Both the position numbers and the translations under genes were made by a program. 64,000 nt of DNA from positions 8,513 through 72,512 of the forward strand of contig JAOZUQ010000004.1 of the NCBI GenBank assembly GCA_029938635.1, in the 5' to 3' direction. Shown here piece by piece: positions 21,789 to 46,084 of the stretch. The stretch's first letter is position 1; each line of letters starts with the position of its first letter. The DNA comes from Candidatus Aminicenantes bacterium (lineage in GTDB: Bacteria > Acidobacteriota > Aminicenantia > UBA2199). The notes beneath the pieces were generated by a model that saw only the letters and a list, made by a program, of their open reading frames with translations, ran no database searches and was not told where the DNA came from.

Positions 21789-22802
21789 ATGCAGAACAAT
21801 ATTGCATCTTCAAAAGAATTGATATTTGCTGATCTGATAAAAATTACTAAAAAAAGGGCAATCTTGCTTTCCACAGTATTAATATCAGGAATAATTCTTA
21901 TAACACTTTTTTTTACTTTTAAATATCCTCCCGAGGCCTTATCATCAAGGATCTTCTCAGATGATCTCGGAAATATTTTCAGTATAATCAATAGTAAAAA
22001 TAGTTTTTTATCTCCTGATGATATCAACAAACTGATTGATCCCATTATTCAATTAAATATAGAAAAGAAGAAAAAATATAAGATTTCAGTAAAAAACACA
22101 TTTAAAAAAGGGAAAATACACAATTCAGTTGTTGGAGTCCTTGACCTGAATATAAGTAGAAAATTTGCAAAATATGATGAAAAAAGTAAAGTAAAATTTA
22201 CTAGGGATATTGAGGATTTTTTCAGGAAATTTGAGCATCAACTTTTTTTATGGTTTGTTTACAGAGAGAAAATTGAAAAGCTGAAGATCATAGACAACAT
22301 TATAAAAAAAAAAAAAGCAATTGAAGAAGAAGAGAAGAAAATTAGTATTGTAAAAAAATTCAAGGATATCCCCTCAGAAAATTACCGGGATATACTTGAT
22401 ATAGACCCTAGTTATCTTCCTCCTTCCCAGCAATATTACGGGCTTGTTATTGAAATGAATAACCAAAAAAGGCTTCTTGATTTGTTTAATGAAGCCCTTA
22501 TTGAAATAGATGGAATATTGAAAATTATTTCAGATAAAGAGTTGTCATTATTTTCTGAGATTGTAATTATCAAAGACCTGAAGCAGTATGAAATATTATA
22601 TAACAGAGTAAAGTTAATTTCTGAAAATATCCGGATTTTAAAGAATAAACTTATTTTAAGAGGATTTTATCGGTCTGAAAATATCCCGGGAATTTATCTG
22701 ATAGTTTTTTCCTTTTTAATACTCTTTATATTCCTGGTCATTTTAATAAGCTTTATTGAATGGTGGTCCAAAAATAAAGATAAGATTAACATCAGAATAT
22801 AG
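21789..22802 (+). CDS. Wzz-like polysaccharide co-polymerase (chain-length determinant) candidate. Called from topology only.
   Basis: 337 aa. TM1 at about aa 23-44, a Lys/Glu-rich predicted coiled-coil region of about 250 aa, and a C-terminal TM (IYLIVFSFLILFIFLVILISF). This is the PCP-1 architecture. GGAGGGG RBS. Confidence 0.4.
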   Translation: MQNNIASSKELIFADLIKITKKRAILLSTVLISGIILITLFFTFKYPPEALSSRIFSDDLGNIFSIINSKNSFLSPDDINKLIDPIIQLNIEKKKKYKISVKNTFKKGKIHNSVVGVLDLNISRKFAKYDEKSKVKFTRDIEDFFRKFEHQLFLWFVYREKIEKLKIIDNIIKKKKAIEEEEKKISIVKKFKDIPSENYRDILDIDPSYLPPSQQYYGLVIEMNNQKRLLDLFNEALIEIDGILKIISDKELSLFSEIVIIKDLKQYEILYNRVKLISENIRILKNKLILRGFYRSENIPGIYLIVFSFLILFIFLVILISFIEWWSKNKDKINIRI

Positions 22803-22997
22803 TCTCATGTTTCTTTCAATATGAATTTATTTATCTTCAGGTTGTCTTTAATGAAAACAGAACTTATTGTCAATGGAATTATCGTATAATTTTTCAATTG
22901 TGATGTAATATGTTAAAATATATACACAGATATTGAATCTTTTAAAGTTTAACAAAACTGATTTAAATCATTAAATTTATAATGAAGAATTGAAATA

Positions 22998-23717
22998 ATG
23001 CTATTAGTAACTGGAATGCACAGATCTGGGACTTCAATAACAACACAGTTGCTTCTTGAAGCTGGAGCTAAGCTTGGAAATCCTGACAAGCTATTTCCAG
23101 GAGACAAATGGAACCCCGATGGATATTTTGAACAAATGGAGATCCTGGATGTTAATATTTCATTAGTTAACGGGCCTTGGGGGAAATTTTCCTATTTCTC
23201 TCCACCTTCCGAGAATTTAATACTGAAAAGAGCGGAAAAGTTAGAAAATAAAATTAAGGAATTGTCCAGAAATCATATAGACCTAATTGTTAAAGACCCA
23301 AGGTTTTGTCTTACACTATCGGCCTGGAAGCAGTATTATGATGGTATAAAAAAGGTTCTGATCAATGTCAGAGAACCAATTCAAGTGGCCTATTCATTAA
23401 AAAAGCGAAATCATATTTCTATTAGATTGGGATTGAAGTTATGGTATGAACACAATAAAAGGATACTGGAATATGTAAATGATATTCCTCATATTTTTTT
23501 TAATTTTAATAATTTGTTTTCTCCTGAATTATCAACTCTGGAAATTAAGAAAGTATTTAAGTTTTTTGATTTAAATGTAAAGGATTCAAAAATAGATTCT
23601 ATTCTGAACAAATGTGTTAAATCATCTTTAAAACACAATACTATCACTGAATATAAGTATGAAAAAAATATAAGGGAACTTTGGGATCACTTAAAAAACA
23701 AGTGTGGAAGTTATTAA
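22998..23717 (+). CDS. Sulfotransferase (Stf0/NodH-like, PAPS-dependent).
   Basis: N-terminal LLVTGMHRSGTSITTQLL is a 5'-PSB P-loop-like motif. A downstream IVKDPRFCLTLSAW is a 3'-PB-like block. 239 aa. Confidence 0.6.
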   Translation: MLLVTGMHRSGTSITTQLLLEAGAKLGNPDKLFPGDKWNPDGYFEQMEILDVNISLVNGPWGKFSYFSPPSENLILKRAEKLENKIKELSRNHIDLIVKDPRFCLTLSAWKQYYDGIKKVLINVREPIQVAYSLKKRNHISIRLGLKLWYEHNKRILEYVNDIPHIFFNFNNLFSPELSTLEIKKVFKFFDLNVKDSKIDSILNKCVKSSLKHNTITEYKYEKNIRELWDHLKNKCGSY

Positions 23718-23753
23718 TAAGCTAATAATTATAAAGGAATTAGATATAAAAAA

Positions 23754-24416
23754 ATGATAAGTTTAAAAAAAATGAAGTTGAAAATATTTGGGGGGTTGGT
23801 CCCGGAAGGGGAATTGGGGTTGAAAATTATTGGATATCGTAAATATGTCGGAGGCAAATGGGATGAGATAGGAAATTTGCAATTTGATTATCTGATAAAA
23901 CAGGGATTAAAATCTTCTCACAGTTTTCTTGATATCGGTTGTGGTGCGCTAAGGGGCGGGTCAAGGTTTATTGAATACCTAGATGCCGGTAACTATCTTG
24001 GATTTGATAAAGAAAAAAAATTAGTTGAAATTGGTAAGAAGAAAGTTCTTCAAGGAAACTTGTTAAAAGAAAAAAATCCTGAATTTGTAATATCTGATAA
24101 GTTTGAGTTTGACGGATTTTTAAAAAAACCGAATTATTCACTTGCCCTGTCTTTGTTTTCCCATCTAAGTGAAGAAGATATATTGCTTTGCCTGAAAAAT
24201 CTCAGAAAATTTGTCAATAAAGAGCATATATTTTTTGCCACATTTTTTGAGGGTGAATCCGATAGAAACCCAGATAAATCTCATAGTCTTGACCATTTTG
24301 ATTTTACTAGAGAAGAGATGATCAAATTCGGGGAAAGAACAAGCTGGAAGTCGGAATACATCGGAGATTGGGACCATCCGAGAGACCAGAAAATGATCAA
24401 ATATATTGCCGAATAG
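23754..24416 (+). CDS. Class I SAM-dependent methyltransferase.
   Basis: LDIGCGALRGGSRFIE motif I (GxGxG) with a downstream acidic motif II. 220 aa. Confidence 0.65.
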   Translation: MISLKKMKLKIFGGLVPEGELGLKIIGYRKYVGGKWDEIGNLQFDYLIKQGLKSSHSFLDIGCGALRGGSRFIEYLDAGNYLGFDKEKKLVEIGKKKVLQGNLLKEKNPEFVISDKFEFDGFLKKPNYSLALSLFSHLSEEDILLCLKNLRKFVNKEHIFFATFFEGESDRNPDKSHSLDHFDFTREEMIKFGERTSWKSEYIGDWDHPRDQKMIKYIAE

Positions 24417-24429
24417 GAATAGTTAAGAA

Positions 24430-25374
24430 ATGGGATGTTTGTCAGAAAAAAAAACAAAAATCGGAATTAAGTTTTTTATTGGGATAATTTTACTGGGGAT
24501 ACTTGTATTCAAGTTGTACAATAATAAAATAGAATTCTTCAATTATACATTTAACAATTATTATTTTTTCTTCGGATTTTTTTTTATTTTATTTTCATTT
24601 TTTATTATTACTTTAAGGATTCATATTTTAGTGTCTGATTATGTTGAGAGTTATATTGAAACTTTAAAAATGTTTTTAATAGGATGGTTTTTTTCTAATA
24701 TACTTCCAACTAATATCGGAGGAGATGGATATATGATCCTCCATCTGAAAAAAAAATCTGTTTCAATGACAGAGGCAGTTACACTTGTAACTTTCCAGAG
24801 ATTTATAGGTTTGATTGTCCTTGTTGTTTATGGAATAGGATATTTGTTTTTTTATCCAAACTGGATCTATAAAATAGATATGAACCTGAATATTAGTTTT
24901 AATTTCGTTATTTTAATATCTGTGATTTTTATTATATTACTTTGCATTTTTTTCATTCTCTTCAAGGGAGTAATAAAAAAACAATTAAAAAAAGCAAGAA
25001 AATTCTTTATGGATTACAAAAGTATACTTAATGATTTCAAGTTTATTAAACATCTAAACCTGATACTTCTCTCAATTTCCTATCATTTGATCAGATTGGC
25101 AGGTTTATCATTTCTTTTACTAAGTTTTAATCAAAAAGTTGATCCTCCGGATATACTGTTCATTATGGTTATTGTTACAATTGGTTCTCTGATACCTATA
25201 AGCATCGGTGCTCTGGGTGTGCAGGAATCTCTGTTTACATTAGGATTGTCAACTTTTGGAGTTTCTGTTCCAATAGCTATTATAGTTTCCTTTATTAACA
25301 GAGGAATATATATTCTTGTTGCATTAATCGGCGGACTTCTTTTTTTGTTTGACAAGAAAAAAAAAGCAACATAG
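24430..25374 (+). CDS. Polytopic membrane protein, UPF0104 / LPG-synthase-TM 'flippase-like' family candidate.
   Basis: 314 aa, about 8 TM helices. An ILPTNIGGDGYMILHL block resembles the PxxGGxG(E) signature of that family. Low certainty. Confidence 0.3.
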   Translation: MGCLSEKKTKIGIKFFIGIILLGILVFKLYNNKIEFFNYTFNNYYFFFGFFFILFSFFIITLRIHILVSDYVESYIETLKMFLIGWFFSNILPTNIGGDGYMILHLKKKSVSMTEAVTLVTFQRFIGLIVLVVYGIGYLFFYPNWIYKIDMNLNISFNFVILISVIFIILLCIFFILFKGVIKKQLKKARKFFMDYKSILNDFKFIKHLNLILLSISYHLIRLAGLSFLLLSFNQKVDPPDILFIMVIVTIGSLIPISIGALGVQESLFTLGLSTFGVSVPIAIIVSFINRGIYILVALIGGLLFLFDKKKKAT

Positions 25375-25395: not shown

Positions 25396-27408
25396 ATGTC
25401 TTTTAATAAATTTAAAATTTTGTCATTTTCAAAATATGGATTAATAATTTTTTCAATTCTTTTGATTCTTTTCTTGTACACTCCATCAATCTTTTTTTTC
25501 TTCAGGGACTCTAATCAAGGAGCACAACTCTCAAAAGCTCAGGAGATCCTGAATGGATTTCATCCATTTGTGGATATTATGGGAAATATATACGGACCTC
25601 TTGTATTTTATTTTAGTACCCTGGGGCAACTTCTCTCTGGCAATAGATTAATAGGTGAGATTTTTATCATTGTTATCGGATATTTATCATCCTATTTGCT
25701 CCTTTATTATTTAATGGAAAGATTCACAAAAAGCTTTATGATCTCCTATCTATTATTAATAACTTTGTTATTATTTTTACCAAGATTCTATAAATATTAT
25801 ATTGTACTAGCTCCGATCTTAGTTCTATTTTCAATTTATTACCTTATTTTCAGAAATAGAAATTATAATGGAGTTGTTTTTTTAGGAATTTCCTGTGGGA
25901 TTTCTATTTTGTTTAGATTTGATTTTGGAGTATATGCTTTTATTGTCGGACTTTCAGTTATTTATCTGAGTTTAAAGGATAAGGGAAAAAAGATATTAAG
26001 GAATAATTTCATATATTTTACTGCATCTGTTTTTTTTGTGGGATTACCTTTCTTATTATTATTAATTTTGAATAACAGATTCCCGGGTGCAATAATTGAA
26101 ACTTTTGAAGTAGTAGTCGGGATGGCACACGGAATGGATCTGCCTGTTCCTGTATTCAATTTTCATCAATCTCTTTTTTCCTTATATAACAATATATCTC
26201 TATTTTTCTGGTTTTTTAGAATTTTACCTTTTATAGTATTGATAATTTTACTTACACTAAAAAAAAAAATAGAGCAAAAAGAGAGATTATTTATTTTTGT
26301 AACTTCTGTATTTTCTATTCTACTATATATTCAAGCCTTAAACAGGCCTCATATTTTCCATACACTTCAAGCTATACCTATGCAGTTTATTTTGATAGCA
26401 TGGATATTTGGTTACTCTAATAAAAAAATTGTAAGGAAAAGCTTTAGCATTAAACTGGCAATTGTATCTACAACATTGATTTTGTTATTTCTTATTATTC
26501 CATTTGTTAAAAACCATCATTTAATAAAAAAACATGGTGAATATAATTCTAATCTAAAGAATTGGTTTTCAAATTACAAGGAATTATTCTTAACAAAAGA
26601 GAGTTTAAGGGAAAAATACAAAAAGAAAAACGGGTTAATAAGAATAACAGATTTTGTGAATAGAAGAACAAAGAAGGATGAATCTGTTTTATTCATCCCT
26701 GTGGCCCCTCAGCTTTACTATTTTTCAGAAAGGGTTTTTAAAACATCTCTTGGTGTTTTGGGACCGGGAAGATTAACCACCAGGGAGAAACAATCAGCTT
26801 TCTTCCGGGAGTTAATAGATACAAACACAAATATTATAGTTGATTTCTACGAGTTTAGTTATGATAAAATTGCAGAAAGGAACCCAAGATATTATTATCC
26901 GTATTTAATGAATCTTATTTATTCAAATTACAAAATAGTTAGTAAATTTGGAAATAGAACTTTACTATGCAGAGACAATCGTTTTAATAAATTTCTTACA
27001 AACAAATTGCCTTCATTCAGCAATATGACATATGAGAAAAATATTTTTATAAAAAAAAAAATTCCGGCAAATATTTATAGAATAAATACTTTATTTGCAA
27101 AAAACATAACAAAAGTCAGCATAGTGAAAAAAGGAGTTCTGTTTTGTGAGATAAAGATCTCCCTGGAAAAAAGTATAATTAAAAAATATTTTCTGGGACT
27201 AATAAAGGGGAGTAAATTATATTTTACAGATATAAAGCCATTGAAAAGGAAAAAAGCTAAAAATAATTTTAAGTTTGAAGTTTTTTCTTCAACATCTAAT
27301 GTCCCGGAAGGATCATATAAAATGATTGTTTTTTATTCTGAAGATCAGAATAAATGGTATTATGAAGAGTTACCAATAGAAATTTTGATTACAAAGCCGA
27401 TAAATTAA
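25396..27408 (+). CDS. GT-C-like polytopic membrane protein with a C-terminal soluble domain. Paralog of 30036..32024.
   Basis: 670 aa. About 11-12 TM in the first ~390 aa. Conserved first-loop motif FFFRDSNQGAQLSKAQEILNGFHPF. About 65% identity to the 30036 product over the N-terminal 100 aa. Confidence 0.35.
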   Translation: MSFNKFKILSFSKYGLIIFSILLILFLYTPSIFFFFRDSNQGAQLSKAQEILNGFHPFVDIMGNIYGPLVFYFSTLGQLLSGNRLIGEIFIIVIGYLSSYLLLYYLMERFTKSFMISYLLLITLLLFLPRFYKYYIVLAPILVLFSIYYLIFRNRNYNGVVFLGISCGISILFRFDFGVYAFIVGLSVIYLSLKDKGKKILRNNFIYFTASVFFVGLPFLLLLILNNRFPGAIIETFEVVVGMAHGMDLPVPVFNFHQSLFSLYNNISLFFWFFRILPFIVLIILLTLKKKIEQKERLFIFVTSVFSILLYIQALNRPHIFHTLQAIPMQFILIAWIFGYSNKKIVRKSFSIKLAIVSTTLILLFLIIPFVKNHHLIKKHGEYNSNLKNWFSNYKELFLTKESLREKYKKKNGLIRITDFVNRRTKKDESVLFIPVAPQLYYFSERVFKTSLGVLGPGRLTTREKQSAFFRELIDTNTNIIVDFYEFSYDKIAERNPRYYYPYLMNLIYSNYKIVSKFGNRTLLCRDNRFNKFLTNKLPSFSNMTYEKNIFIKKKIPANIYRINTLFAKNITKVSIVKKGVLFCEIKISLEKSIIKKYFLGLIKGSKLYFTDIKPLKRKKAKNNFKFEVFSSTSNVPEGSYKMIVFYSEDQNKWYYEELPIEILITKPIN

Positions 27409-27420: not shown

Positions 27421-28161
27421 TCAGTCATAAGCTGATCTGATTTTCCCGGAACTGATCCTGTCAGATTTCTTCCATTTATAGGCTCTTATCCTGCGAAAAA
27501 AAAGGAACTTGAAATAATTGATGTAGCCTATATCTGAGATTGAATAATTGTAGTTTTTTATTTTATTGTAAATCAGAAAAGGTCCGAATATTATTTTAAT
27601 AAGTTTTTCAGGAACATCACTCTTTCCTTCAATCTTATTAGTTGGATTGTATAGTGGTAATTTCCTTTTTTGATCTATTCCTGCCTTTTTCAACATTTCA
27701 GAAAATCCTTTATTCAATTCATCAAAATATATCCATTGGTTAACATAATTCCTGTTTTCAGATATATAACTGTCATATGGAATAAATGAATACACATTCT
27801 TAAGATATTCCAGGAAATCCCAATTGTTTTTCTTTACCTGATGAAAAGTTCTTCTTGCTTTTTTTGAAACATGGCCGCCATTTTCTAAAAAATATTTCCT
27901 GTCGGTATAAACACCATTTGCATTTGTTTTAAGTTTATTGAATACCGAGAATACTATATCAACAGGATCTCTTTGAACAGCTGTTATATGGAATTGATTA
28001 ATATCCAATCCTTTGAAAATTTTAATCAAATAAGGGATATTCGCATGTTTATGAAGTAAAGGTTCACTATTGTAATTTTCGATCAACTCCTTTATTATTG
28101 CACTCGAAGCGGAATAGGGTATCCCGATAAACAGTAATTTATACTTTTTGTTAATGACCAT
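27421..28161 (-). CDS. Sulfotransferase-like protein with a degenerate PAPS-binding motif. Opposite strand to the surrounding cluster.
   Basis: 246 aa. LLFIGIPYSASSAI is P-loop-like, but Tyr sits where the 5'-PSB Lys is expected. ITAVQRDPVDIVFSVF is a 3'-PB-like block. Confidence 0.3.
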   Translation of the reverse strand: MVINKKYKLLFIGIPYSASSAIIKELIENYNSEPLLHKHANIPYLIKIFKGLDINQFHITAVQRDPVDIVFSVFNKLKTNANGVYTDRKYFLENGGHVSKKARRTFHQVKKNNWDFLEYLKNVYSFIPYDSYISENRNYVNQWIYFDELNKGFSEMLKKAGIDQKRKLPLYNPTNKIEGKSDVPEKLIKIIFGPFLIYNKIKNYNYSISDIGYINYFKFLFFRRIRAYKWKKSDRISSGKIRSAYD

Positions 28162-28409
28162 TCTATATATATTATCATGAGAAATGTTTTTTTTGAATTA
28201 AGGAATAATTTCTGGCATTACCCCATTTTTTCATATCATATCTCTGTAAATTACTGCCTCCGGATAACGTCATGTCCATCATCATTTCCAACATGAACTT
28301 CTACTCTAAAATATGGGGTGATGACAAAATAGTTTGATTAGATAAGCAATATATTTCATTTTTTTTATGCTATAATTTCAAATTGAAAAATGCTATCAGG
28401 TTTTCCAAT

Positions 28410-29972
28410 ATGAGAATCGAACTAAAGAAAAAAAAATATTCTATCATCGGATTTTTTCTATTATTAATTCTAATAATTCTTTTTCTTGAAAAACCAGTAA
28501 ATAATTTAATATCAAAGAATAAACAACTAAAGAAAAATATTATTCTGATTGTTTCCGATGCATTACGAAAAGATATTCTCGGATGTTATGGTGGCAAAGC
28601 AAAAACTCCAAATATAGATAAACTGGCCAAAAGAGGAATATTATTTGAAAATGCTTATACAATATCTCCTGTGACAATCCCTTCCTCTGTAGTTTTATTA
28701 ACAGGGAACCATTCGGGATCATACTCACTTTTTTCTGCTAAAGTTAATAATACTACAAAAAAGTTTTTTTTCCATGTTAATAACAAGGATGAACTATTCT
28801 CTGAAATTCTCAGAAAGAATGGTTATGATGTTAAAATGGATATCGAAAACCCCTTGGCTAAAAGTTCAAATAATACTCAGGGATTTGAAAATCTCTACAG
28901 TTTTAAATTAATTAAAAAATTCGATATTTTTAAAATGTTTAATCTTTTTGTAAATAATCAGATTAAAAACATAGAAAAAAAAATCGGAATATTAAAAAGT
29001 GTTCATGAACTCCCTCGCGGTCATTCCAATGATTATTTAAGGACTTATAGCATTCTTGACTATATTCTTACTATTCCAAATAAAAAGAACTTCTTTATTC
29101 TGAAATGGTTTATGGATCCACATGCTCCTTATAACCCTTTAAAAAAATTTAGGGAGAAAATAAAATTCAATCCAGTAGATCTTATAGAAAACAAAAATTA
29201 TTATTCTCGAAATAATGTTAGAAAACTCTTAGAAAGAGAAAAAAAAGGAAAGGAATTTACAAAAGAAGAAATTTCCTATATCAAATCTCTTTATATAGCT
29301 GAAATTGAGTCCGTTGACGAAAGAGTGGGATACATAATGAAAGCGCTGGAAATTAAAAACCTTTTAAACAATACAATTATTATTTTTACTTCAGATCACG
29401 GTGAATTCTTTAACGAGCATGGAGAATTGGGTCATAGTTTATTATATTATGATCAGCTTATACGAATTCCGCTTATTATTTCAGGATCTGGTATACCTGC
29501 CGGAGAAAGAATAGTTAGCAGAGTTTCAAATATGGATATTATTCCTACCCTGAAAGAATTGATGAAAATGAATTATAAAAGTAAAATGTCAGGGAAAAGT
29601 TTCAAAGATCTGCTATTAAATCAGGAATCAAATCCAAATCAAAAAACAATCTATTTTGATACTCTCGGGCATTCTGTAAAAAGAGTTACTGCGAGAGATG
29701 CAATTTTGTATAAAGAATTTAAGCTGATTATTACAAGAAATAAGGGTAAGACAAAATATGAACTATATAATATAATAAGCGACCCGGCAGAGGAGAATAA
29801 TCTTGCTTCATTTAATTTACCGCTTATCAGGAAAATGCTCAGTGAAGTAATAAAAAACAGGAATAGCATAAGAAACCAATACAAAATCAATCTGAAAAAA
29901 AAAGATAATACAAAACTTGATAAGAAGTGGGAAAAAACAAAAAAACACTTAAAAACTCTGGGATATATTTAA
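28410..29972 (+). CDS. Sulfatase/alkaline-phosphatase superfamily protein, membrane-anchored. Thr-type.
   Basis: IILIVSDALRKD, TSDHGEFFNEHGELGHS. Active-site position V-T-I-P-S-S-VVLLTGNH. Ends ...KTLGYI. Start ambiguous: ATG 28410 (MRIELKKKK…) or TTG 28383. Confidence 0.6.
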   Translation: MRIELKKKKYSIIGFFLLLILIILFLEKPVNNLISKNKQLKKNIILIVSDALRKDILGCYGGKAKTPNIDKLAKRGILFENAYTISPVTIPSSVVLLTGNHSGSYSLFSAKVNNTTKKFFFHVNNKDELFSEILRKNGYDVKMDIENPLAKSSNNTQGFENLYSFKLIKKFDIFKMFNLFVNNQIKNIEKKIGILKSVHELPRGHSNDYLRTYSILDYILTIPNKKNFFILKWFMDPHAPYNPLKKFREKIKFNPVDLIENKNYYSRNNVRKLLEREKKGKEFTKEEISYIKSLYIAEIESVDERVGYIMKALEIKNLLNNTIIIFTSDHGEFFNEHGELGHSLLYYDQLIRIPLIISGSGIPAGERIVSRVSNMDIIPTLKELMKMNYKSKMSGKSFKDLLLNQESNPNQKTIYFDTLGHSVKRVTARDAILYKEFKLIITRNKGKTKYELYNIISDPAEENNLASFNLPLIRKMLSEVIKNRNSIRNQYKINLKKKDNTKLDKKWEKTKKHLKTLGYI

Positions 29973-37706: not shown

Positions 37707-38573
37707 TTGCTTCCTGATTTTTTTATTGTTGGTGCTCCAAAATGCGGTACAACAACACTATATCATTTTCTGGCTTCCCATCCGGAAGTATCAATGTCGG
37801 TTCCGAAGGAGTTGAATTTTTTCTCCGGAAAAGAGATTCTTGATCAGAGACTATATTATAAAACATTTCTGGTAAAAAATCTGAATGAATATAAAAATCA
37901 CTTTAAAAAAATCAAAAACGAAAAAATTACCGGGGAGTCCAGCGTATCCTATCTTTATTACAAGGAAGTTCCCGGCAAGATTCATAAACTTATCCCTGAA
38001 GCAAAGATAATTATAATGCTTCGGGATCCGGTGCAAAGAGCGGTATCGCATTATATGATGGACAGAAGGCTTGGATACGTAAATATTCCGTTTGAAGATA
38101 TTGTTTTCAAAAATAATAATTCTGAAAAACTGGAATTATATTATCAGCAGTATATAAAGTTGGGAATGTATTATAATCCGGTTAAAAGGTATATGGATGT
38201 TTTTGGTGAAGATCAGGTATGGATAGGTTTTACAGATGATCTGAATAATAATCCGGAGACAGTATTGGGGGACCTGATTGATTTTCTGGGAGTGAGCAGA
38301 AACAATTCTAAAAATATTTCTGAAAAGCGCAATGTAAATAAAATCCCCAAATTAGATCTGATTGCAAATTTATATAAGTCCGGGAAGTTAAGGAAAACTC
38401 TAAACCTGATATTGCCTGATAAAATAAAAAAAAATATAAAAAAGATACTATTCAAATCGAGTGTGAAACAAGTTGTTGATAAGGATCTGGAGATGCATTT
38501 AAGAAAATTGTACTCTGAAGATATATTAAAACTCAGGAAACTGGTTAATAAAGATTTGGGAGAATGGGTGTAG
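37707..38573 (+). CDS. Sulfotransferase.
   Basis: FFIVGAPKCGTTTLYHFL is the 5'-PSB. IIMLRDPVQRAVSHY is the 3'-PB. TTG start after a G-rich RBS. 288 aa. Confidence 0.7.
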   Translation: MLPDFFIVGAPKCGTTTLYHFLASHPEVSMSVPKELNFFSGKEILDQRLYYKTFLVKNLNEYKNHFKKIKNEKITGESSVSYLYYKEVPGKIHKLIPEAKIIIMLRDPVQRAVSHYMMDRRLGYVNIPFEDIVFKNNNSEKLELYYQQYIKLGMYYNPVKRYMDVFGEDQVWIGFTDDLNNNPETVLGDLIDFLGVSRNNSKNISEKRNVNKIPKLDLIANLYKSGKLRKTLNLILPDKIKKNIKKILFKSSVKQVVDKDLEMHLRKLYSEDILKLRKLVNKDLGEWV

Positions 38574-38577: not shown

Positions 38578-39729
38578 TTGAACCAATCTGAAAAAATTAA
38601 GATTGCCATTATTGATCCTGTGGGAATTAAAGCGGGAATGAATTATTATGATAGTTCATTGATGAATTCTCTGGCAAAAAAGGGTTTAGGTACTTATATT
38701 TTCAGTAATTATCAGGGGACTGCCGGAGAACCTACTAAATATTTCAGTTTTTTTAAAAATCATATAAACAATTTTTTGTTGAAAAAGATTGTTTTGATGC
38801 TCAAGGGGATATTATTGTCGGTATTAAAATGCAGGAAAGAAAAAATTAATTTTATTATTATTCATATTTTCTCTTCCGGATATTTAAATTTATTTATGAT
38901 TTTGTCTATTAAAATATTTGGTTTGAAAACAATTGTCATTTCTCATGATGTGTCCAGTTTTGTTGAAAATGATCTGAAATTTGTTCAGAACATAATATAT
39001 AATAGAATTTCCGATTATATTATTGTTCATAACAGGTTTTCATTAAAAGAATTAATAAAAAATATAAAAATTGATGATCAAAATAAAATAAATATAATCA
39101 GACATGGAGCATATTCAGAATTTATAGATAAAAATATTAAAAAGAATTCTGCAAGAAAAATGCTTAGGCTTGATCCGGGAGGAAAGTATCTGCTTTTTTT
39201 TGGGCAGATTAAAAAAGTTAAAGGATTGGAAATTTTGCTTAGTGCAATGCCTTCCATCAGAAATAATATTAAACTTATAATTTGTGGAAAGCCATGGAAG
39301 GATGATTTTTTCATTTATGATCAGATCATTGAAGAATATAAAATCCAGAGCAGAGTTATAAAATTTGTCAGATATATTGAAGATCATGAAAGAGAACTAA
39401 TCTTTAAAGCTTCAGATGCTATTATAATACCATATAAGAGAATATATCAAAGTGGTGTTTTACTTATGGGGATGAGTTACGGGTTACCTGTGATTGCTTC
39501 TGATCTGGAACCGATAAAAGAGATTATTCAAGACCAGAATAATGGTATTCTATTTAAAACAGGAAATGCCGGGGATTTGGCAGAGAAAGTTAATTTACTG
39601 TTTCAAAACAATAAACTTAGAAAAACAATAAGTGAAAAATCACTTGAAACAATAAGATCAGATTTTTCATGGGAAGGGATAGCTGATAATTACATAAAAA
39701 TGATAAATTGGAATCAAGGTGAAACTTAA
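38578..39729 (+). CDS. Glycosyltransferase family 4 (GT-B, Glycos_transf_1).
   Basis: 383 aa. C-terminal half has the typical GT4 E-x7-E-like region (…GLPVIASDLEPIKEII…). TTG start. Confidence 0.6.
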   Translation: MNQSEKIKIAIIDPVGIKAGMNYYDSSLMNSLAKKGLGTYIFSNYQGTAGEPTKYFSFFKNHINNFLLKKIVLMLKGILLSVLKCRKEKINFIIIHIFSSGYLNLFMILSIKIFGLKTIVISHDVSSFVENDLKFVQNIIYNRISDYIIVHNRFSLKELIKNIKIDDQNKINIIRHGAYSEFIDKNIKKNSARKMLRLDPGGKYLLFFGQIKKVKGLEILLSAMPSIRNNIKLIICGKPWKDDFFIYDQIIEEYKIQSRVIKFVRYIEDHERELIFKASDAIIIPYKRIYQSGVLLMGMSYGLPVIASDLEPIKEIIQDQNNGILFKTGNAGDLAEKVNLLFQNNKLRKTISEKSLETIRSDFSWEGIADNYIKMINWNQGET

Positions 39730-40818
39730 TTGAAAATTGCAATTCTTGGGTCAAGGGGAATTCCTAACAACTATGGTGGTTTTGAAGAGTGTGCAGCCAG
39801 GTTATCTGTTAATCTGGTGAGGGGTGGGCACGATGTAACGGTCTATAACCCCGACACTCACCCCTATGAAGGTAATGAGTGGAAAGGAGTTAAGATAAAA
39901 AAAATATTTTTCAAGGAAAATATTTTCAGGTTTTTTGCTGTTTTTATTTTTGACTTCTTATCATTAAAAGATGCAGTGAAAGATCAGAATGATATAATTC
40001 TGGAGTTGGGATATTCTCCTGCTTCACTTTTTTACAAGTTTGTTCGAAGGGGAAGATCAAAGATAGTTACGAATATGGATGGCCTTGAGTGGAAGAGGGA
40101 TAAGTGGGGTTATCTGACCAGAAAACTTCTAAAACATTGTGAAAAAAATGCAGTAAGGCGAAGTGATGCACTTATATCAGACAATATTGGAATTCAAGAT
40201 CACTTATATAGTGAATACAATGTAAATAGTTGCTTTATTCCTTATGGAGCTGAGAAATTGACCTCACCTGGTGATCCGATACCTGGAAATTTAAACTTGA
40301 AAAAAGGTGAATACTTTCTCTCCGTTGCAAGACTTGAGCCGGAAAATAATATTGAAATGATTTTAGACGGGTATAAACGCTCTGAATCAAATTATCCATT
40401 TGTTGTAGTAGGGCCGTTAAATACAAGTTATGCCGGATTCCTGATGAAAAAATACAGGAATGAAAAAAAAATAAAGTTTATGAATGGGATCTATGATAAA
40501 AGAGTCCTGGATAATCTAAGGTGTCATTGCAGATTATACTTTCATGGCCATTCTGTAGGAGGGACAAATCCTTCACTGCTTGAAGTGATGTCTTGCGGAA
40601 CTCCAATTGCTGCTCATGACAATATATTTAACAGAAGTGTATTGGGTGATGCTGCCTATTTTTTTAAATCTTCAGAAGACGTATCATTGAACATTATAAA
40701 TAAGGACGTTGAAGTTTGTAACAAATTCTCAGATATGAATATTAAAAAGGTCAAAAATGTGTATAATTGGTCAAAAATAACTGACTCCTATTTAAAATTA
40801 TTCCTTGAAATTACTTAA
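39730..40818 (+). CDS. Glycosyltransferase, GT4-like.
   Basis: 362 aa. MKIAILGSRGIPNNYGGFEE N-terminus, and a C-terminal GTNPSLLEVMSCGTPIAAHD nucleotide-sugar-binding block. Confidence 0.6.
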   Translation: MKIAILGSRGIPNNYGGFEECAARLSVNLVRGGHDVTVYNPDTHPYEGNEWKGVKIKKIFFKENIFRFFAVFIFDFLSLKDAVKDQNDIILELGYSPASLFYKFVRRGRSKIVTNMDGLEWKRDKWGYLTRKLLKHCEKNAVRRSDALISDNIGIQDHLYSEYNVNSCFIPYGAEKLTSPGDPIPGNLNLKKGEYFLSVARLEPENNIEMILDGYKRSESNYPFVVVGPLNTSYAGFLMKKYRNEKKIKFMNGIYDKRVLDNLRCHCRLYFHGHSVGGTNPSLLEVMSCGTPIAAHDNIFNRSVLGDAAYFFKSSEDVSLNIINKDVEVCNKFSDMNIKKVKNVYNWSKITDSYLKLFLEIT

Positions 40819-41002: not shown

Positions 41003-41518
41003 ATGATTAAGCGAGTACTATCCACTTCATTTCATTCGATAATTTCAAGATTTTTTATAACGGCTACAAATCTTTTTTTAGTTTTCTTTATTTCAAAAAA
41101 TCTGGGAAAGGTCCAATTAGGTACCTATGGAATTGTTTTCTTCTTCTTCATGTTCTTTGCATTAATATTTTCAGTTTCTCTCTTATTAAGCAGGAATCTG
41201 ATTGTTGCAGCATTCTCCCCCGAATTTCTCCATGATACCGGCAAATATCTTTTCTATTTTTCATTTATTTTAATTTTCAGATTCTTTTCATTCTCTACAG
41301 GTATTATTCTTACTTCTGCAGATGCTCAGAAGACCAGGTTTAATATAATGTTCACTGCTTCAATAATAATGATTGCTCTTGACATAATTCTCGGATCTCA
41401 ACTTCAAGTGACAGGTATGATTATTTCAAGGGCAGTTACAGAAATATTTATATTTTTTATTTTTGGGTACTATGTAAACAGGATCATTTCCAGATACGAT
41501 GTAATTAGACATACATGA
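41003..41518 (+). CDS. Small polytopic membrane protein, possibly a remnant of a flippase-like gene.
   Basis: 171 aa, 4-5 TM, no recognisable motif. Flanked by 184-bp and 144-bp non-coding gaps, unlike the tightly packed neighbours. Confidence 0.25.
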   Translation: MIKRVLSTSFHSIISRFFITATNLFLVFFISKNLGKVQLGTYGIVFFFFMFFALIFSVSLLLSRNLIVAAFSPEFLHDTGKYLFYFSFILIFRFFSFSTGIILTSADAQKTRFNIMFTASIIMIALDIILGSQLQVTGMIISRAVTEIFIFFIFGYYVNRIISRYDVIRHT

Positions 41519-41662: not shown

Positions 41663-42727
41663 ATGAAAATATTAATTACAGGGACAGCCGGATTCATAGG
41701 GTATCATCTTGTAAAGAAGCTTGCCGGAAAGGATCTGGAAATAGTTGGAATAGACAATATTAATGATTATTATGACGTCAATCTGAAATATGCCCGGTTG
41801 AAAGAGACAGGGATACTTAAAGAAAGGATCGAAGATGGCAAAGTTGTAAAGAGTGAGATATTTCCGGATTATTCTTTTATAAAGATGGACTTAAAAGATA
41901 GTGCCGGAGTCAATGATATTTTTAAAAAAAATAAATTTGACATGGTTTGTCACCTTGCTGCACAGGCAGGTGTAAGATATTCGATTGAGAATCCAAAAGC
42001 ATACATTGAGAGTAATCTTAACGCCTTTGCAAATATTCTTGAAGGAGTACGGAATTTTAAGACAGGGCACCTTGTCTATGCCAGCAGCTCTTCGGTTTAC
42101 GGTTTGAATGAAGCCATGCCGTTCTCGACCCATCACAATGTCGATCATCCGGTAAGTTTGTATGCCGCGACCAAGAAAGGAAATGAGCTTCTTGCACACA
42201 GTTATAGTTATCTCTATGGGATACCGGTTACTGGCCTCCGGTTCTTCACTGTTTACGGGCCATGGGGGCGGCCTGACATGGCTTTGTTTAAATTTGTCAG
42301 GAATATTCTTGAGGGGAATCCGATCGAAGTTTACAATTTCGGGAAAATGGAGAGGGATTTCACATACATAGATGATATTGTACTCGGTATCGAAAAAGTT
42401 TTATCCATACCTCCGAAAGGGAATCCAAACTGGAACGGAATGCAGCCTGATCCTTCATCCAGCACATCTCCCTACAAAATTTATAATATCGGAAATGGCA
42501 AACCGGTAAAACTGATGGATTTTATCAGTGTAATGGAAAAAACACTTGGAATAGAAGGGGAAAAAAAATTGATGCCCATCCAACCTGGAGATGTTAAGAA
42601 AACCTGGGCAGATACGGCAGATCTCGAGAGAGATACAGGATATAAACCTTCCACCCCTGTTGAGATTGGAGTCAGGAATTTTATAGATTGGTATCGGGAT
42701 TTTTATAATTTCAGAAATGATGGCTGA
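41663..42727 (+). CDS. NAD-dependent nucleotide-sugar epimerase (SDR), most similar in pattern to UDP-glucuronate 4-epimerases.
   Basis: MKILITGTAGFIGYHL Rossmann motif. YASSSSVYG and YAATKKGNE (catalytic YxxxK). TVYGPWGRPDMA block characteristic of the Cap1J/WbpP-like UDP-GlcA/GalNAcA epimerase group. Confidence 0.7.
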   Translation: MKILITGTAGFIGYHLVKKLAGKDLEIVGIDNINDYYDVNLKYARLKETGILKERIEDGKVVKSEIFPDYSFIKMDLKDSAGVNDIFKKNKFDMVCHLAAQAGVRYSIENPKAYIESNLNAFANILEGVRNFKTGHLVYASSSSVYGLNEAMPFSTHHNVDHPVSLYAATKKGNELLAHSYSYLYGIPVTGLRFFTVYGPWGRPDMALFKFVRNILEGNPIEVYNFGKMERDFTYIDDIVLGIEKVLSIPPKGNPNWNGMQPDPSSSTSPYKIYNIGNGKPVKLMDFISVMEKTLGIEGEKKLMPIQPGDVKKTWADTADLERDTGYKPSTPVEIGVRNFIDWYRDFYNFRNDG

Positions 42728-42753: not shown

Positions 42754-44172
42754 ATGAATGGAATAAGACGTTCATTCTTCTATATTTTCCTGTTTTTTGA
42801 TGCGCTAATCCTTATAGTCACTTTTTCAATTGCAGATATTATTTCAAGAAGCAGACTAAATGAAAAAATTCTGAATGAGATCGGGAACCCGGGCCTCTCC
42901 GAAATATTTACAATTCTTATATTTATTATTATCTGGTTCTTTTCAGCGAGGATAACTTCACTCTATGATGAATTGAAAAATTTCAACTTCGGGTCAGAAT
43001 TTTTTACTCTTCTACAGAATATATCAATTCAATTAATTGCCGGAGTGGCTGTTTTTTTCTCTTTGAAAGATATGCTGTTGTCCAGATATTTCCTGATGGC
43101 CTATTTGATCCTGGTATTTTCAGGGACACTTTTTCTAAGAGTTGTGTACAGATATGTAAAGAGATTGTTGATAAGACAGGGGAAATTAAGGAAAAATGTT
43201 CTATTAGTAGGTGATAGTGATTTCGGGAATAATTTGTTTGGTACACCGGAACGGTCAGCAACAATGGGCTATAACATAACCGGATATATTGCTGACAGCC
43301 CTGACACTGATAACCCCGGATATCTTGGGACTTTTTCCGATATTGGCAAAGTGATTACTGAGTACAATGTTGATGAAGTATTGATCACTTTAAGTACAAA
43401 AGACTCAGAAAAGCTCGATAGTATTATTGCAACTCTCTCGGCATTCCCTGTCCGTGCAAGGGTAATACCTGAATATTTTAAATTTATTTCAAATAAATAT
43501 CAGATCTCATTTTTCAATAATGTCCCCGTAATAGATATAAGGAATGATCCGCTTGATGAACTCCATTGGCGCCTGATAAAGCGGGGATTTGATGTTTTCT
43601 TTTCAATTATGTTCATTCTGTTGATTTACTCATGGCTCGGCCTTCTGATATCAATTGGTGTTAAAATAAGTTCTAAAGGCCCTGTTTATTTCAAGCAGGA
43701 GAGGTGGGGGCGAAAGAACAAACGGTTTACTTTATTTAAATTCAGGTCAATGGTAAAAGACAGCAGCGATCTGGATGGTGAAGGAAAGTTTGTACAGGCG
43801 ACCAAAGAAGATGCTCGTATTACTCCATTCGGGAAGTTTCTAAGGAAGACAAGCCTTGATGAACTGCCGCAGTTTTTTAATGTACTTTTTGGAGACATGT
43901 CCGTGATAGGGCCAAGGCCTCATGCTGTCCCCATGAATATTGAATCGAAGGATAAGATAGAGAACTATATGCTGAGGCACCTTGTTAAGCCCGGGATAAC
44001 CGGGTGGGCCCAGGTGAACGGATACAGGGGTGCAACTTTAAATAAAAAAAGGCTTGAGCGGAGGATTGAATTTGATATGTTCTATATTGAGAACTGGTCC
44101 TTCTGGTTTGATTTGCGGATCATCTTCCTTACAGTCTGGCAGGGTGTGAGGGGAGATCCGAATGCATATTAA
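42754..44172 (+). CDS. Undecaprenyl-phosphate sugar-1-phosphate transferase (WbaP/PglB-like initiating 'bacterial sugar transferase').
   Basis: 472 aa. N-terminal TM segments, then KRGFDVFFS…GPVYFKQERWG…FTLFKFRSM…DELPQFFNVLFGDMSVIGPRPH blocks of the Bac_transf domain. Confidence 0.75.
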   Translation: MNGIRRSFFYIFLFFDALILIVTFSIADIISRSRLNEKILNEIGNPGLSEIFTILIFIIIWFFSARITSLYDELKNFNFGSEFFTLLQNISIQLIAGVAVFFSLKDMLLSRYFLMAYLILVFSGTLFLRVVYRYVKRLLIRQGKLRKNVLLVGDSDFGNNLFGTPERSATMGYNITGYIADSPDTDNPGYLGTFSDIGKVITEYNVDEVLITLSTKDSEKLDSIIATLSAFPVRARVIPEYFKFISNKYQISFFNNVPVIDIRNDPLDELHWRLIKRGFDVFFSIMFILLIYSWLGLLISIGVKISSKGPVYFKQERWGRKNKRFTLFKFRSMVKDSSDLDGEGKFVQATKEDARITPFGKFLRKTSLDELPQFFNVLFGDMSVIGPRPHAVPMNIESKDKIENYMLRHLVKPGITGWAQVNGYRGATLNKKRLERRIEFDMFYIENWSFWFDLRIIFLTVWQGVRGDPNAY

Positions 44173-46084
44173 CAAAACTGATCTGATATATTATATTTTT
44201 GCGTCACTGGCCTTAGTACTATCATTTTATATTATTGTATTTCACATAGGTTTTATATTTCTTCCTGTTACTTTCCTGATTGCAGGAGCTGCAATATCAT
44301 TACTTCCGGGTGGGAACGGGTTGAAAGTTTTCTTTTTTCTACTCCCTCTGATCAATTCTCTTCCTGCACTATTTTTTAACGGTTATCCATTCAATCTGAT
44401 GGCGATCGTTTTATTCTTTCTGGCGGGTGTGGTCGCAGGATCATTACTGAAGGGTGTTAATCCCGGTTTTAAAGATTTCAACTGGGCATCTTCTTACCTT
44501 ATATTCCTATCGATCTTATGGATATCATTTGTTTTTGTTTTATTAAGGTGGTCGAATATTTTTATGCCTTCCGGAGCATTTTTAGCCGATACACCTGTCG
44601 GCCCGGGAGTTCCTCAGAGCCCCAGGGTCTCTTTTGCTGTTATTTTCCCGGTCATTACAATATTTCTTTTTTCTTTGACCCCTTTTACTGCAGCTTTGAT
44701 CAGAAAATATTCCTTGAAAAAAGAACAGATATTCAGACTGATCATCTTCGGGTATTCCTTTTCTTTTCTCATTGCTTTGTATCAGAAATTAATTGATAAA
44801 GGGTTCCTGTCCCTTGTATGGTGGGGGGAAAAATTGAATCGGTACAATGGGGGATTCTCAGATTTTAACGGGTTCGGGTTCTTCGGAGGAGTCCTGTTTC
44901 TATACTCCTCTCTGGCATTAATGAACTCTCCTGATGATGGAGCAGGGAAATGGTTTGGCAGAAACCGTACTTTTTTGATTTTTGCTGCTCATATTTCTTT
45001 CTTCGGAATAGTTTTATCCGGAAGCCGCACTGCGTTTATTTTTGTGATCTTTGCATTTATATATTTGATGTTCAGTAGAGTAAAGAACACCATAAAGATT
45101 ATAATTCCTTCATTGTTTATCGTTATACTGCTTTTTTCCGGAGGAGAACTAGTAAAAAGACTGGAAAAAGCATTTGATTCTCCCAGTATTGGTAAAGGGA
45201 ATACGCGTTTTATAAAAGTCATTGATGGTTTTTCAAACGGAAGAGTCCGGATGGTTGAAACCTCCATACAGATAGTTAAAAAATACCCGGTTTCGGGTAT
45301 TGGAGCAGGCAATTTCATTTTTCATCTGAAATTTCTGAAACATGGAGAAAAATTTCTTGAAGACCTTCCACTTAACCAATACCTCCTTTTCCTGGACGAA
45401 ATTGGAGTTATCGGCCTTTTATCTTTCCTGCTTTTTATTTTTATTATAATAAGGGGGAGATATAAGGATATGTATTTCAAGATGCTTATGGTTGTTTTAC
45501 TTGTTATGCTTGTCGGTAATTCTTTATGGCTGCCTGAAATATTTATCCTGTTCTGGATACTTGTTATATCTGTAACGGGGCCTCCAGAACTTAAACAATT
45601 TGATATAAAGAAGTTTAAACCTGTTATATATTTATTGTTAATAATTTTTGTTCTATCAAATATCGTTTCTTTTAATTCTCTTCACCCGTCAAAACTAATG
45701 TCAATTCGGGGACTCCCGTATGACTTTGGTTTCTGGACGGAATCTGCTAATTCAGGATTCCGCTGGACAAAGACTAATGCAGGGGTGTTATTGGAGATAG
45801 ATGAGAGCGGAGTTTGCGGCCCTATAAAATTTTTCTGTGGAGCTCCTCTTGGTAATATTCCAGGAAAAATTCAAATTTTAAAGATATTTAAAAATGGTAA
45901 GCCTGCAGGTACAAAGAGTTTTAATTCAAATGAAGAACACCTGTTTTATATTAAAGGTGAACCAGGAGAAAAGTTCTTTCTCGGAGTTGAAGTTGATCCT
46001 GCTTTTAATTTGAAAAAAATGGGTATTAGCCCGGAATCGAGAGATCTTGGCGTTCAGTTCTTTCCTGTTGCTGATGAGCTGTGA
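44162..46084 (+). CDS. O-antigen-ligase-family (Wzy_C) membrane protein with a ~190-aa C-terminal extracytoplasmic domain. Candidate polymerase or O-oligosaccharyltransferase.
   Basis: 640 aa, about 12 TM. SGSRTAFIFVIF loop block typical of the Wzy_C/WaaL family. Hydrophilic C-terminal ~190 aa. Confidence 0.45.
   Translation: MHINKTDLIYYIFASLALVLSFYIIVFHIGFIFLPVTFLIAGAAISLLPGGNGLKVFFFLLPLINSLPALFFNGYPFNLMAIVLFFLAGVVAGSLLKGVNPGFKDFNWASSYLIFLSILWISFVFVLLRWSNIFMPSGAFLADTPVGPGVPQSPRVSFAVIFPVITIFLFSLTPFTAALIRKYSLKKEQIFRLIIFGYSFSFLIALYQKLIDKGFLSLVWWGEKLNRYNGGFSDFNGFGFFGGVLFLYSSLALMNSPDDGAGKWFGRNRTFLIFAAHISFFGIVLSGSRTAFIFVIFAFIYLMFSRVKNTIKIIIPSLFIVILLFSGGELVKRLEKAFDSPSIGKGNTRFIKVIDGFSNGRVRMVETSIQIVKKYPVSGIGAGNFIFHLKFLKHGEKFLEDLPLNQYLLFLDEIGVIGLLSFLLFIFIIIRGRYKDMYFKMLMVVLLVMLVGNSLWLPEIFILFWILVISVTGPPELKQFDIKKFKPVIYLLLIIFVLSNIVSFNSLHPSKLMSIRGLPYDFGFWTESANSGFRWTKTNAGVLLEIDESGVCGPIKFFCGAPLGNIPGKIQILKIFKNGKPAGTKSFNSNEEHLFYIKGEPGEKFFLGVEVDPAFNLKKMGISPESRDLGVQFFPVADEL

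Follow-up and report, generated by a model that had tools for sequence, protein, structure and literature searches.

A surface-glycan locus lies at positions 21789 to 46084 of a 64,000-nucleotide stretch of contig JAOZUQ010000004.1 (the window). It is probably a variable locus of the Wzx/Wzy type, O-antigen-like in its organization, which makes a sulfated and methylated glycan through a WcaJ-initiated pathway. The locus provides candidate polysaccharide sulfotransferases from three families, and the number and diversity of its sulfotransferase-like genes are unusually high. Bacterial sulfated-polysaccharide gene clusters are a known kind of system, shown in cyanobacteria and some marine bacteria and undescribed for the Aminicenantes phylum; a literature search found no paper linking Aminicenantes with a sulfotransferase. 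A preliminary description of this DNA had already proposed a sulfated, methylated product, and for a Wzx/Wzy locus with several sulfotransferases and two methyltransferases this stays the best reading. The open reading frames (ORFs) listed there lie where they were placed, and the motifs quoted from them are all found in the translations.

The region counts 21 ORFs, 20 of them itemised, and all but one lie on the forward strand, with gaps of -35 to 221 nt between neighboring genes. Its upstream boundary is a terminator-like hairpin (21712 to 21739, +; an 11-bp stem with 7 GC pairs, and a T-run), which sits behind the last Kre9_KNH gene and just ahead of the opening gene of the locus. The GC content is 27 to 33% at ∼22 to 41 kb, compared with 38 to 42% in the flanks. 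Where the variable part of the locus passes, with a step in GC content, into the conserved part, lies an ORF of 171 aa with five predicted transmembrane (TM) helices (41003 to 41518, +), which shares 47% identity with the C-terminal portion of a 410-aa protein of the multidrug/oligosaccharidyl-lipid/polysaccharide (MOP) type in the related locus L004. This homology to the C terminus of a Wzx-like flippase identifies the ORF as a probable Wzx remnant, marking a recombination junction. The GC trough, the conserved 3' end and the remnant at the junction together show a real, coherent, serotype-like variable surface-glycan (O-antigen-like) locus with a conserved 3' end. The aspartyl-tRNA synthetase AspRS of the window is 95, 90, and 84% identical to those of three metagenome-assembled genomes (MAGs) of Candidatus Aminicenantes, and by this comparison the host is an uncultured Candidatus Aminicenantes (Acidobacteriota) bacterium. 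Members of this lineage are uncultured and common in anoxic sediments and bioreactors.

Two of the sulfotransferase-like proteins, ST2 (36735 to 37661, +) and ST3 (37707 to 38573, +), are by sequence clear sulfotransferases of the type dependent on 3'-phosphoadenosine 5'-phosphosulfate (PAPS), from the family of the heparan-sulfate 3-O-sulfotransferases (3-OSTs) and NDSTs. Assignment by hidden Markov model places both in Sulfotransfer_1, with 52 bits (E value of 9e-14) for ST2 and 69 bits (5e-19) for ST3 against a Pfam cutoff of 22. ST2 contains GVHKAGTTS, with HKAGTT as the 5'-phosphosulfate-binding (PSB) loop, EAS at the position of the catalytic glutamate and LRDPVSRF within the 3'-phosphate-binding (3'-PB) motif RDPVSRFIS. 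The corresponding elements of ST3 are GAPKCGTTT (PSB loop PKCGTT), GES and LRDPVQRA (3'-PB motif RDPVQRAVS). The two proteins share 29% identity, and both have the bacterial sulfotransferase 3rnl as the top match in the Protein Data Bank (PDB), with E values of 7e-17 for ST2 and 9e-39 for ST3, followed by the human heparan-sulfate enzymes 3-OST-1, -3 and -5 and the sulfotransferase domain of NDST1 (1e-16 to 1e-6). HKAGTT and PKCGTT align with the PSB loops of 3rnl and 3-OST-3, and the PSB lysine and the 3'-PB arginine and serine are present. The GES of ST3 aligns with MEK of 3-OST-3, in which the glutamate of the EKTPSY segment is presumably the catalytic base. Both proteins thus resemble 3rnl and the heparan-sulfate enzymes in xKxGTT, the glutamate at the 3-OST-3 position and RDPxxRxxS, but identity is low and no genes for a heparosan-type backbone are found in the window locus. 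The homology is to be read at the family level only. Both genes sit between glycosyltransferase (GT) genes, with gaps of -35 to 45 nt.

ST1 (22998 to 23717, +), a cytoplasmic protein of 239 aa, is judged from its sequence and predicted structure to be a real sulfotransferase from an uncharacterised family. The preliminary description had counted it among three proteins with clear PAPS-binding motifs, and the motif quoted there (MLLVTGMHRSGTS) is present in the translation. GMHRSGTS follows the first strand, REPIQVAYS forms the 3'-PB motif and E45 is invariant. The 113 homologs are ∼240 aa long and mostly unnamed; across 37 homologs, GMHRSGxS, E45, K99, R102/F103 and R125-x-P-x5-S show no variation or almost none. 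An arginine replaces the lysine of the PSB loop. In a profile search against the PDB, every match at an E value of ≤0.001 is a sulfotransferase, the best at 1e-5. The structural model has a mean predicted local distance difference test (pLDDT) score of 94, and its best Foldseek match is TPST2 in complex with 3'-phosphoadenosine 5'-phosphate (PAP), with further matches to SULTs, Teg12 and StaL; the top matches are mostly sulfotransferases, with a few P-loop kinases.

The only gene on the opposite strand encodes the fourth candidate, ST4cand (27421 to 28161, -; 246 aa), described earlier as a degenerate sulfotransferase. This description fits: the protein has no Pfam match, and its PSB loop lacks the lysine and the glycine. 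A sulfotransferase fold and the 3'-PB motif RDPVDIVFS (within QRDPVDIVFS) are recognizable, together with IPYSASSA and an invariant HKHAN. Only ten homologs are found, in which H37-K38-H39-A-N and R64-x-P66 are invariant, and two family members that match Sulfotransfer_2 read PHTGSTA, also without the lysine. The activity of ST4cand is uncertain because of this altered loop. The comparison with a strain variant of 93% identity gives 13 synonymous and 9 non-synonymous changes and a ratio of non-synonymous to synonymous polymorphism (pN/pS) of 0.16, which indicates a maintained protein under purifying selection. None of the four sulfotransferase-like proteins has a predicted TM helix, and no obvious N-terminal signal sequence is seen by eye, which fits an action in the cytoplasm, where PAPS is found. 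A structure prediction, as proposed earlier, supports ST1 as sulfotransferase-like, whereas for the fourth candidate the Foldseek matches are not significant. The term "heavily sulfated" in the preliminary description is left unsupported, as the full canonical motif set occurs in only two of the enzymes.

The remaining genes provide the parts of a Wzx/Wzy pathway, with a polyprenyl-phosphate hexose-1-phosphate transferase (PHPT), a MOP flippase and a Wzy polymerase in one locus. The PHPT (Bac_transf; 42754 to 44172, +) exceeds the TIGR03023 cutoff of the WcaJ type (449 bits compared with 411). An initiator of the WbaP (Gal-1-P) type, as named earlier, is rejected with a score of 248 against a cutoff of 403. 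The families of the transferases, the epimerase, the flippase and the Wzy_C proteins named earlier are confirmed by Pfam. The Wzx-type flippase (32965 to 34347, +) matches Polysacc_synt with 54 bits and has 11 predicted TM helices; the Wzy-type polymerase (34347 to 35684, +) matches Wzy_C with 43.9 bits and also has 11. Three soluble GTs are encoded: a GT2 with no C-terminal TM helix and weak similarity to the rhamnosyltransferase subfamily (35798 to 36769, +), a GT4 (38578 to 39729, +) whose counterpart in the sister locus L013 is only 30% identical, making it a variable gene, and a Cps2T/WchF-like GT4 with an N-terminal DUF1972 domain (39730 to 40818, +; 185 bits, under the equivalog cutoff). 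In pneumococci, Cps2T transfers the second sugar onto undecaprenyl-diphosphate-glucose (Und-PP-Glc), and by analogy the DUF1972 enzyme probably does the same here. Two class I methyltransferases dependent on S-adenosylmethionine (SAM), as counted earlier, are present. The smaller, of 220 aa (23754 to 24416, +), contains DIGCGALRG and matches Methyltransf_12 below the threshold (27.7 compared with 30); it is 70 to 72% identical in L013 and the locus L015, where it lies beside the flippase-like/GT-C module described below. The larger, of 295 aa (32054 to 32941, +), matches Methyltransf_11 with 55 bits.

A short-chain dehydrogenase/reductase (SDR) resembling UDP-uronate 4-epimerases (41663 to 42727, +) is 80 to 81% identical in the relatives L003 and L004. 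Its best PDB match, 5u4q (E value of 9e-135), is deposited as a dTDP-glucose dehydratase, but true RmlB enzymes reach only ∼1e-23; the second and third matches, 6zl6 and MoeE5, are taken here to be UDP-glucuronic acid (UDP-GlcA) 4-epimerases. The uronic acid that had been suggested for the glycan is plausible on account of these two matches. A glycosaminoglycan (GAG)-like product, as also suggested, is rejected: the locus combines a WcaJ initiator with two GT4s and a rhamnosyltransferase-like GT2, and no hexosamine pathway gene, GAG-type polymerase, ABC transporter, aminotransferase or N-acetyltransferase is found in it. The protein called Wzz-like (21789 to 22802, +; 337 aa) resembles the polysaccharide copolymerases (PCPs) and Wzz in topology only, having a single TM helix at either end; it gives no match in Pfam, NCBIfam or the PDB and is 62% identical in L013. 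The locus ends with a Wzy_C-domain protein of 640 aa and 12 TM helices (44162 to 46084, +; 80% identical in L003), a candidate WaaL-like ligase or PglL-like O-oligosaccharyltransferase (O-OTase).

A multistep pathway, with its enzymatic steps, sulfate donor and product, can be proposed from the observed gene content, families, motif conservation, predicted folds, synteny and variability. The WcaJ-type transferase would place Glc-1-P on undecaprenyl phosphate, after which the Cps2T-like GT4, the second GT4 and the GT2 would assemble a short repeat unit on the cytoplasmic side of the membrane. This unit may include a uronic acid supplied by the SDR. Cytoplasmic sulfotransferases using PAPS and the SAM-dependent methyltransferases would then tailor the lipid-linked unit by O-sulfation and O-methylation; a part in this step has a high likelihood for ST2 and ST3, is probable for ST1 and is possible for the fourth protein. 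Wzx would flip the unit and Wzy polymerize it, with the two-TM protein possibly setting the chain length. At the outer face, a pair of GT-C-like proteins fed by a flippase-like protein would probably add side branches, and an enzyme of the sulfatase fold with a threonine-type motif may attach or remove an additional ester-linked group. In the last step, the Wzy_C-domain protein would join the polymer to its final acceptor.

The sister locus L013, from another Acidobacteriota MAG (GCA_039714255.1), shows the same gene order and four sulfotransferase-like genes, which argues against a chance assembly of the window locus. Its order is Kre9, two-TM protein, ST1, methyltransferase, flippase-like protein and 662-aa protein, then ST4cand and another sulfotransferase on the opposite strand, followed by a second 662-aa protein, Wzx, a different Wzy, GT2, ST2, a different GT4 and the GT4-DUF1972. 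Shared genes are 47 to 74% identical at the protein level; ST1, ST2 and ST4cand fall at 58 to 66%, with ST2 at 66%. An ortholog of ST3 is not found in L013; the extra sulfotransferase there is a Sulfotransfer_3 protein unrelated to ST3, and the Wzy position is occupied by an unrelated 419-aa protein. The sulfatase-fold gene at 28383 and the 295-aa methyltransferase are absent from L013. The polymerase, one GT and one sulfotransferase thus co-vary between the loci, as expected if the structure of the repeat unit differs. Three Aminicenantes relatives retain aspS, hisS, the PHPT, the SDR and the sulfatase-family gene downstream at 61 to 93% identity, and the 640-aa Wzy_C protein is found in one of the three; the interior genes of the locus are not found within the 10-kb flank. 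In L004, the same site between aspS, PHPT and SDR (14548 to 21722) is occupied by a WecG/TagA GT, a full-length Wzx, a Sulfotransfer_1 protein (284 aa, 64 bits), an SDR, a DegT aminotransferase and GT4s, which indicates that sulfation recurs in the Aminicenantes lineage at a hypervariable site. In L003, from the relative UBA647, ∼6 kb (11813 to 17794) is inserted between aspS and the Wzy_C ligase-like gene, with genes that include those for an ODP protein of the metallo-beta-lactamase fold, a DUF4388 response regulator and a hybrid PAS histidine kinase.

The function of the 640-aa protein bears on the question of what the glycan is attached to. The Wzy_C domain is common to WaaL ligases and the O-OTases PglL and PilO, and an alternative reading sees a protein- or S-layer-glycosylation system, in which a PglL-type 640-aa enzyme transfers the glycan onto Kre9_KNH/GEVED proteins and not onto lipid A-core. 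Four paralogous Kre9_KNH/GEVED proteins with signal peptides and Ser/Thr/Pro-rich linkers are encoded directly upstream, the adjacency of a Kre9 gene, the two-TM protein and ST1 is repeated in L013 and the locus L017, and no lipid A-core genes are seen in the window. These observations are countered by the strong terminator-like hairpin that divides the Kre9 genes from the locus and by the Wzy polymerase and the chain-length-regulator-like protein, which favor a polymer; the 640-aa gene, moreover, is not found within 10 kb of aspS in L004, though the locus is there. Glycosylation of these proteins is therefore considered unlikely. The upstream array itself (14232 to 21689, +) consists of four secreted, Ig-like proteins of 1077, 466, 400, and 376 aa, candidates for glycoprotein acceptors or for proteins of the cell surface. 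The shorter three share ∼120 near-identical residues at the N terminus and diverge at the C terminus. One Kre9-like ORF (19187 to 20389, +) has a Lys-rich C-terminal half unlike that of its paralogs, which may reflect a frameshift or an assembly error. In L013 and L017, too, the gene next to the glycan locus on its upstream side is of the Kre9_KNH type.

Between 24430 and 32024 lie genes for a flippase-like protein, two GT-C-like paralogs and the Thr-type sulfatase-fold enzyme, which had been passed over in the preliminary description. The flippase-like polytopic protein (24430 to 25374, +) matches LPG_synthase_TM and scores above the cutoff of TIGR00374, and by these matches it is a candidate translocator of a sugar linked to polyprenyl phosphate. 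Paralog A (25396 to 27408, +; 670 aa) is predicted to have ∼10 TM helices and a C-terminal soluble domain of ∼300 aa and has no Pfam match; paralog B (30036 to 32024, +; 662 aa) shares with it the FFFRDxxQGAQL loop after the first TM helix. The two are 42% identical, with 8 to 10 TM helices and the ∼300-aa C-terminal domain, and neither has a Pfam match of its own. A distant homolog of paralog A, P0138 (E value of 4e-44), matches PMT_2 with 27.2 bits against a cutoff of 26.1, and another homolog, P0134, is named ArnT-like by the Joint Genome Institute. The two paralogs and the flippase-like protein probably form a periplasmic side-branch module of the Arn/Gtr type, to judge from these similarities.

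The relatives of ST1 lead to the same type of module. Of the 20 metagenome loci that could be assessed, 17 have an ArnC-like GT2 with two C-terminal TM helices no more than 300 nt downstream of the ST1 homolog; 14 of them continue with an SDR and 12 with a DegT aminotransferase, often with an additional methyltransferase and a large membrane or flippase-like protein. The same pattern appears in L015, L022, L023 and L024. The best NCBIfam matches in these cassettes are ArnC for the GT2 and PseC and ArnB for the aminotransferase, with ArnC and ArnB scores far under the equivalog cutoffs. In L015, the order ST1, GT2, SDR, DegT, flippase-like protein, methyltransferase, GT-C and GT-C is found inside a locus that is otherwise syntenic with the window. 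The cassette GT2, SDR and DegT genes are absent from the window locus and from L013, with no copy in the 64 kb. ST1 therefore usually heads, as far as the gene neighborhoods indicate, an Arn-like cassette that is truncated in the window. The cassettes lie at 2058 to 11866 in L015, 10001 to 14949 in L022, 8001 to 14054 in L023 and 8001 to 13858 in L024, and in L026 to L057; the one in L022 stands outside any Wzx/Wzy locus.

This usual context of ST1 suggests that the enzyme may belong to a side-branch module and not to the tailoring of the repeat unit. In such an alternative, which is compatible with the sulfated O-antigen-like glycan and refines it, ST1, the 220-aa methyltransferase, the flippase-like protein and the GT-C-like paralogs would form a separate Arn/Gtr-like module, either a truncated relic or one relying on genes elsewhere, and only ST2 and ST3, with or without the fourth protein, would tailor the repeat unit. 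The frequency of the ArnC-like GT2 behind ST1 and the full cassette of L015 speak for this division of labor, whereas ST1 is intact in the window and in L013 without GT2, SDR and DegT, which suggests a role independent of these genes, and the low ArnC and ArnB scores weaken the comparison further. Such a division is possible, though less likely than not. Related loci resemble the Arn (4-amino-4-deoxy-L-arabinose, L-Ara4N) and Gtr systems in clustering a polyprenyl-phosphate GT2, an SDR, a DegT aminotransferase, a flippase-like protein and a GT-C-like protein. Unlike those systems, the ST1 cassettes have no formyltransferase or deformylase, but a sulfotransferase and a methyltransferase instead, and the window itself lacks the GT2, the SDR and the aminotransferase. 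The cassette could represent an unrecognised route to sulfated surface glycans, though an unlikely one, in which ST1 would sulfate a 4-amino sugar in the cytoplasm while this is bound to its nucleotide or lipid carrier, the pre-sulfated sugar being flipped and attached by a GT-C enzyme in the periplasm, where PAPS is unavailable; the window would then contain a truncated version of this module within an O-antigen-like locus. N-sulfation would possibly replace the N-formylation of ArnA. The most novel lead of this analysis is the Arn-like cassette with ST1 at its head.

Sulfated polysaccharides were once believed to be near-absent from bacteria other than cyanobacteria, and in the literature found, genetic proof of sulfation in a Wzx/Wzy pathway comes from synechan only. 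The xss cluster of Synechocystis sp. PCC 6803 contains two sulfotransferases in a Wzx/Wzy cluster, and its exopolysaccharide carries about two sulfates per unit of eight sugars (PMC8205485). The window locus resembles xss in being a Wzx/Wzy/PCP-type cluster with sulfotransferases among the GT genes; cytoplasmic sulfation of the lipid-linked repeat unit is the model there too, and the outer-membrane exporter lies outside the cluster. While xss has its two sulfotransferases, eight GTs, a location on a megaplasmid and the regulators XssQ, XssR and XssS, the window locus has two canonical and two divergent sulfotransferase-like genes, three soluble GTs and two methyltransferases. It adds the GT-C-like paralogs, the flippase-like protein, the Thr-type sulfatase-fold enzyme and the ligase-like Wzy_C protein, has no regulator genes and comes from a different phylum.

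Vibrio sp. KMM 8419 has three sulfotransferases in a sulfated capsular polysaccharide (CPS) locus with co-located cysNDC (PMC11641403). As in the window, several sulfotransferases occur with surface-polysaccharide genes, one of them beside a Wzx/Wzy O-antigen set, but the Vibrio genes are spread over 80 genes and include ABC-transporter export and cysNDC, whereas the window contains no PAPS genes. The earlier statement that several sulfotransferases in one locus are uncommon is fair, qualified by the precedents of synechan (PMC8205485) and this Vibrio CPS locus (PMC11641403). Pontiella sulfatireligans F21 contains a cluster for a putative sulfated GAG-like exopolymer, and a sulfated, mostly N-sulfated, exopolymer was measured (PMC7356697). 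Its sulfotransferase, methyltransferase, GT2 and GT4 enzymes, GT-C-type YfhO, polyprenyl-phosphate GT2 and small flippase-like GtrA form a similar combination in an anaerobic, uncultured-type lineage; in contrast to its one sulfotransferase and an aminotransferase, the window has four sulfotransferase-like genes and neither an aminotransferase nor a polyprenyl-phosphate GT2. According to work cited in PMC7356697, sulfated GAG-like polymers are known from granular sludge and anammox granules, with producers unidentified. With a surface-glycan locus that is conserved but variable and carries sulfotransferase genes, Aminicenantes becomes a candidate producer lineage, and the new sulfotransferases are leads for enzyme discovery.

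Several points weigh against a sulfated, methylated O-antigen-like glycan as the product. The source sequence is a MAG. Neither the 64 kb of the window nor the ∼7.5 kb to the left of it contains a cysD, cysN, cysC or cysQ gene, and co-located cysNDC is treated as a hallmark of sulfated-CPS loci in the Vibrio study (PMC11641403). ST1 passes the Pfam cutoff only marginally (23.1 compared with 22 bits), and its setting elsewhere is an Arn-like cassette, of which the window lacks the GT2, the SDR and the aminotransferase. The PSB loop of ST4cand reads PYSASSA, and Foldseek and sequence searches with this protein give nothing significant. The GT-C assignment of the 670- and 662-aa proteins is transitive only: a profile search against the PDB is negative, and an hhalign comparison with the window's PMT_2 protein gives a probability of 0.4%. 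A polyprenyl-phosphate GT to feed them is not found in the window. Among the scanned ORFs of the window, no Poly_export (Wza, outer membrane polysaccharide export) or Wzc-type match occurs, by which the product looks O-antigen- or glycoconjugate-like and not capsule-like.

Some of these points would fit sulfotransferase-like genes that are largely inactive or act on lipids or small molecules, the glycan being barely or not sulfated. The lack of PAPS genes in the window and its left flank, the degenerate loop of ST4cand and the marginal Pfam score of ST1 are consistent with this, as is the loss of one of the two synechan sulfotransferases with little phenotype (PMC8205485). Such a reading is improbable in view of the complete catalytic motif sets of ST2 and ST3 between GT genes, the 58 to 66% identity of ST1, ST2 and ST4cand to their L013 counterparts, the pN/pS of 0.16 for ST4cand and the recurrence of sulfotransferase genes at the same locus in related genomes.

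The sulfatase-fold enzyme of the side-branch region (28383 to 29972, +) belongs to the alkaline-phosphatase superfamily and has one N-terminal TM helix, with 141 bits for PF00884 and 54 bits for SGSH_C. Its best PDB match is a GlcNAc-6-sulfatase (E value of 4e-31), and like the S1 formylglycine sulfatases it shows N- and C-terminal sulfatase subdomains and the DHG metal site. Unlike in those enzymes, which carry C/S-x-P/A-x-R, the nucleophile motif of the protein and its whole clade is of the threonine type: the protein reads T-I-P-S-S, and a scan of the clade finds threonine in 81 of 82 representatives and arginine at position +4 in none. With this motif the protein cannot mature to formylglycine, and a role as a formylglycine sulfatase that edits the sulfation is rejected. 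It is probably an extracytoplasmic Thr-nucleophile enzyme, whose predicted chemistry is that of Thr-nucleophile phospho(di)esterases or transferases.

The window codes for four PF00884 proteins in total, at 10705 to 12054 (-), 12168 to 14027 (-), 28383 to 29972 (+) and 49295 to 50878 (-), with the nucleophile motifs WTLPS, WTLPS, VTIPS and ITLPS, respectively. The C/S-x-P-x-R motif occurs in none of the four, and the proteins also exceed the threshold of the Pfam family Phosphodiest; by these motifs they are probably not formylglycine sulfatases. One of the four nevertheless shares a gene string with a gene for a protein that has a domain of the formylglycine-generating enzyme (FGE-sulfatase; 8640 to 9401, -). 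With the formylglycine motif missing in all four, these "sulfatases" are not evidence of a turnover of sulfated glycans, and the neighboring sulfatase and FGE-domain genes are rejected as support for sulfate metabolism.

Scans of the window for regulatory elements give no Rfam match and 51 promoter sites compared with 42 ± 6.7 expected, which is uninformative in AT-rich DNA. Further glycan genes lie outside the locus. A second glycan-modification set (3365 to 8618, +) contains an 835-aa PMT_2 (GT-C) protein, a polysaccharide deacetylase and a NodU/CmcH-type carbamoyltransferase, and its gene order is repeated on the Logan contig L018. At the other end (59936 to 63985, -), two more Wzy_C proteins, of 613 aa and of 301 aa with TPR, are encoded next to a glycoside-hydrolase-like protein with GH39, GH10 and GH5 matches, which brings the Wzy_C proteins within the 64 kb to at least four.

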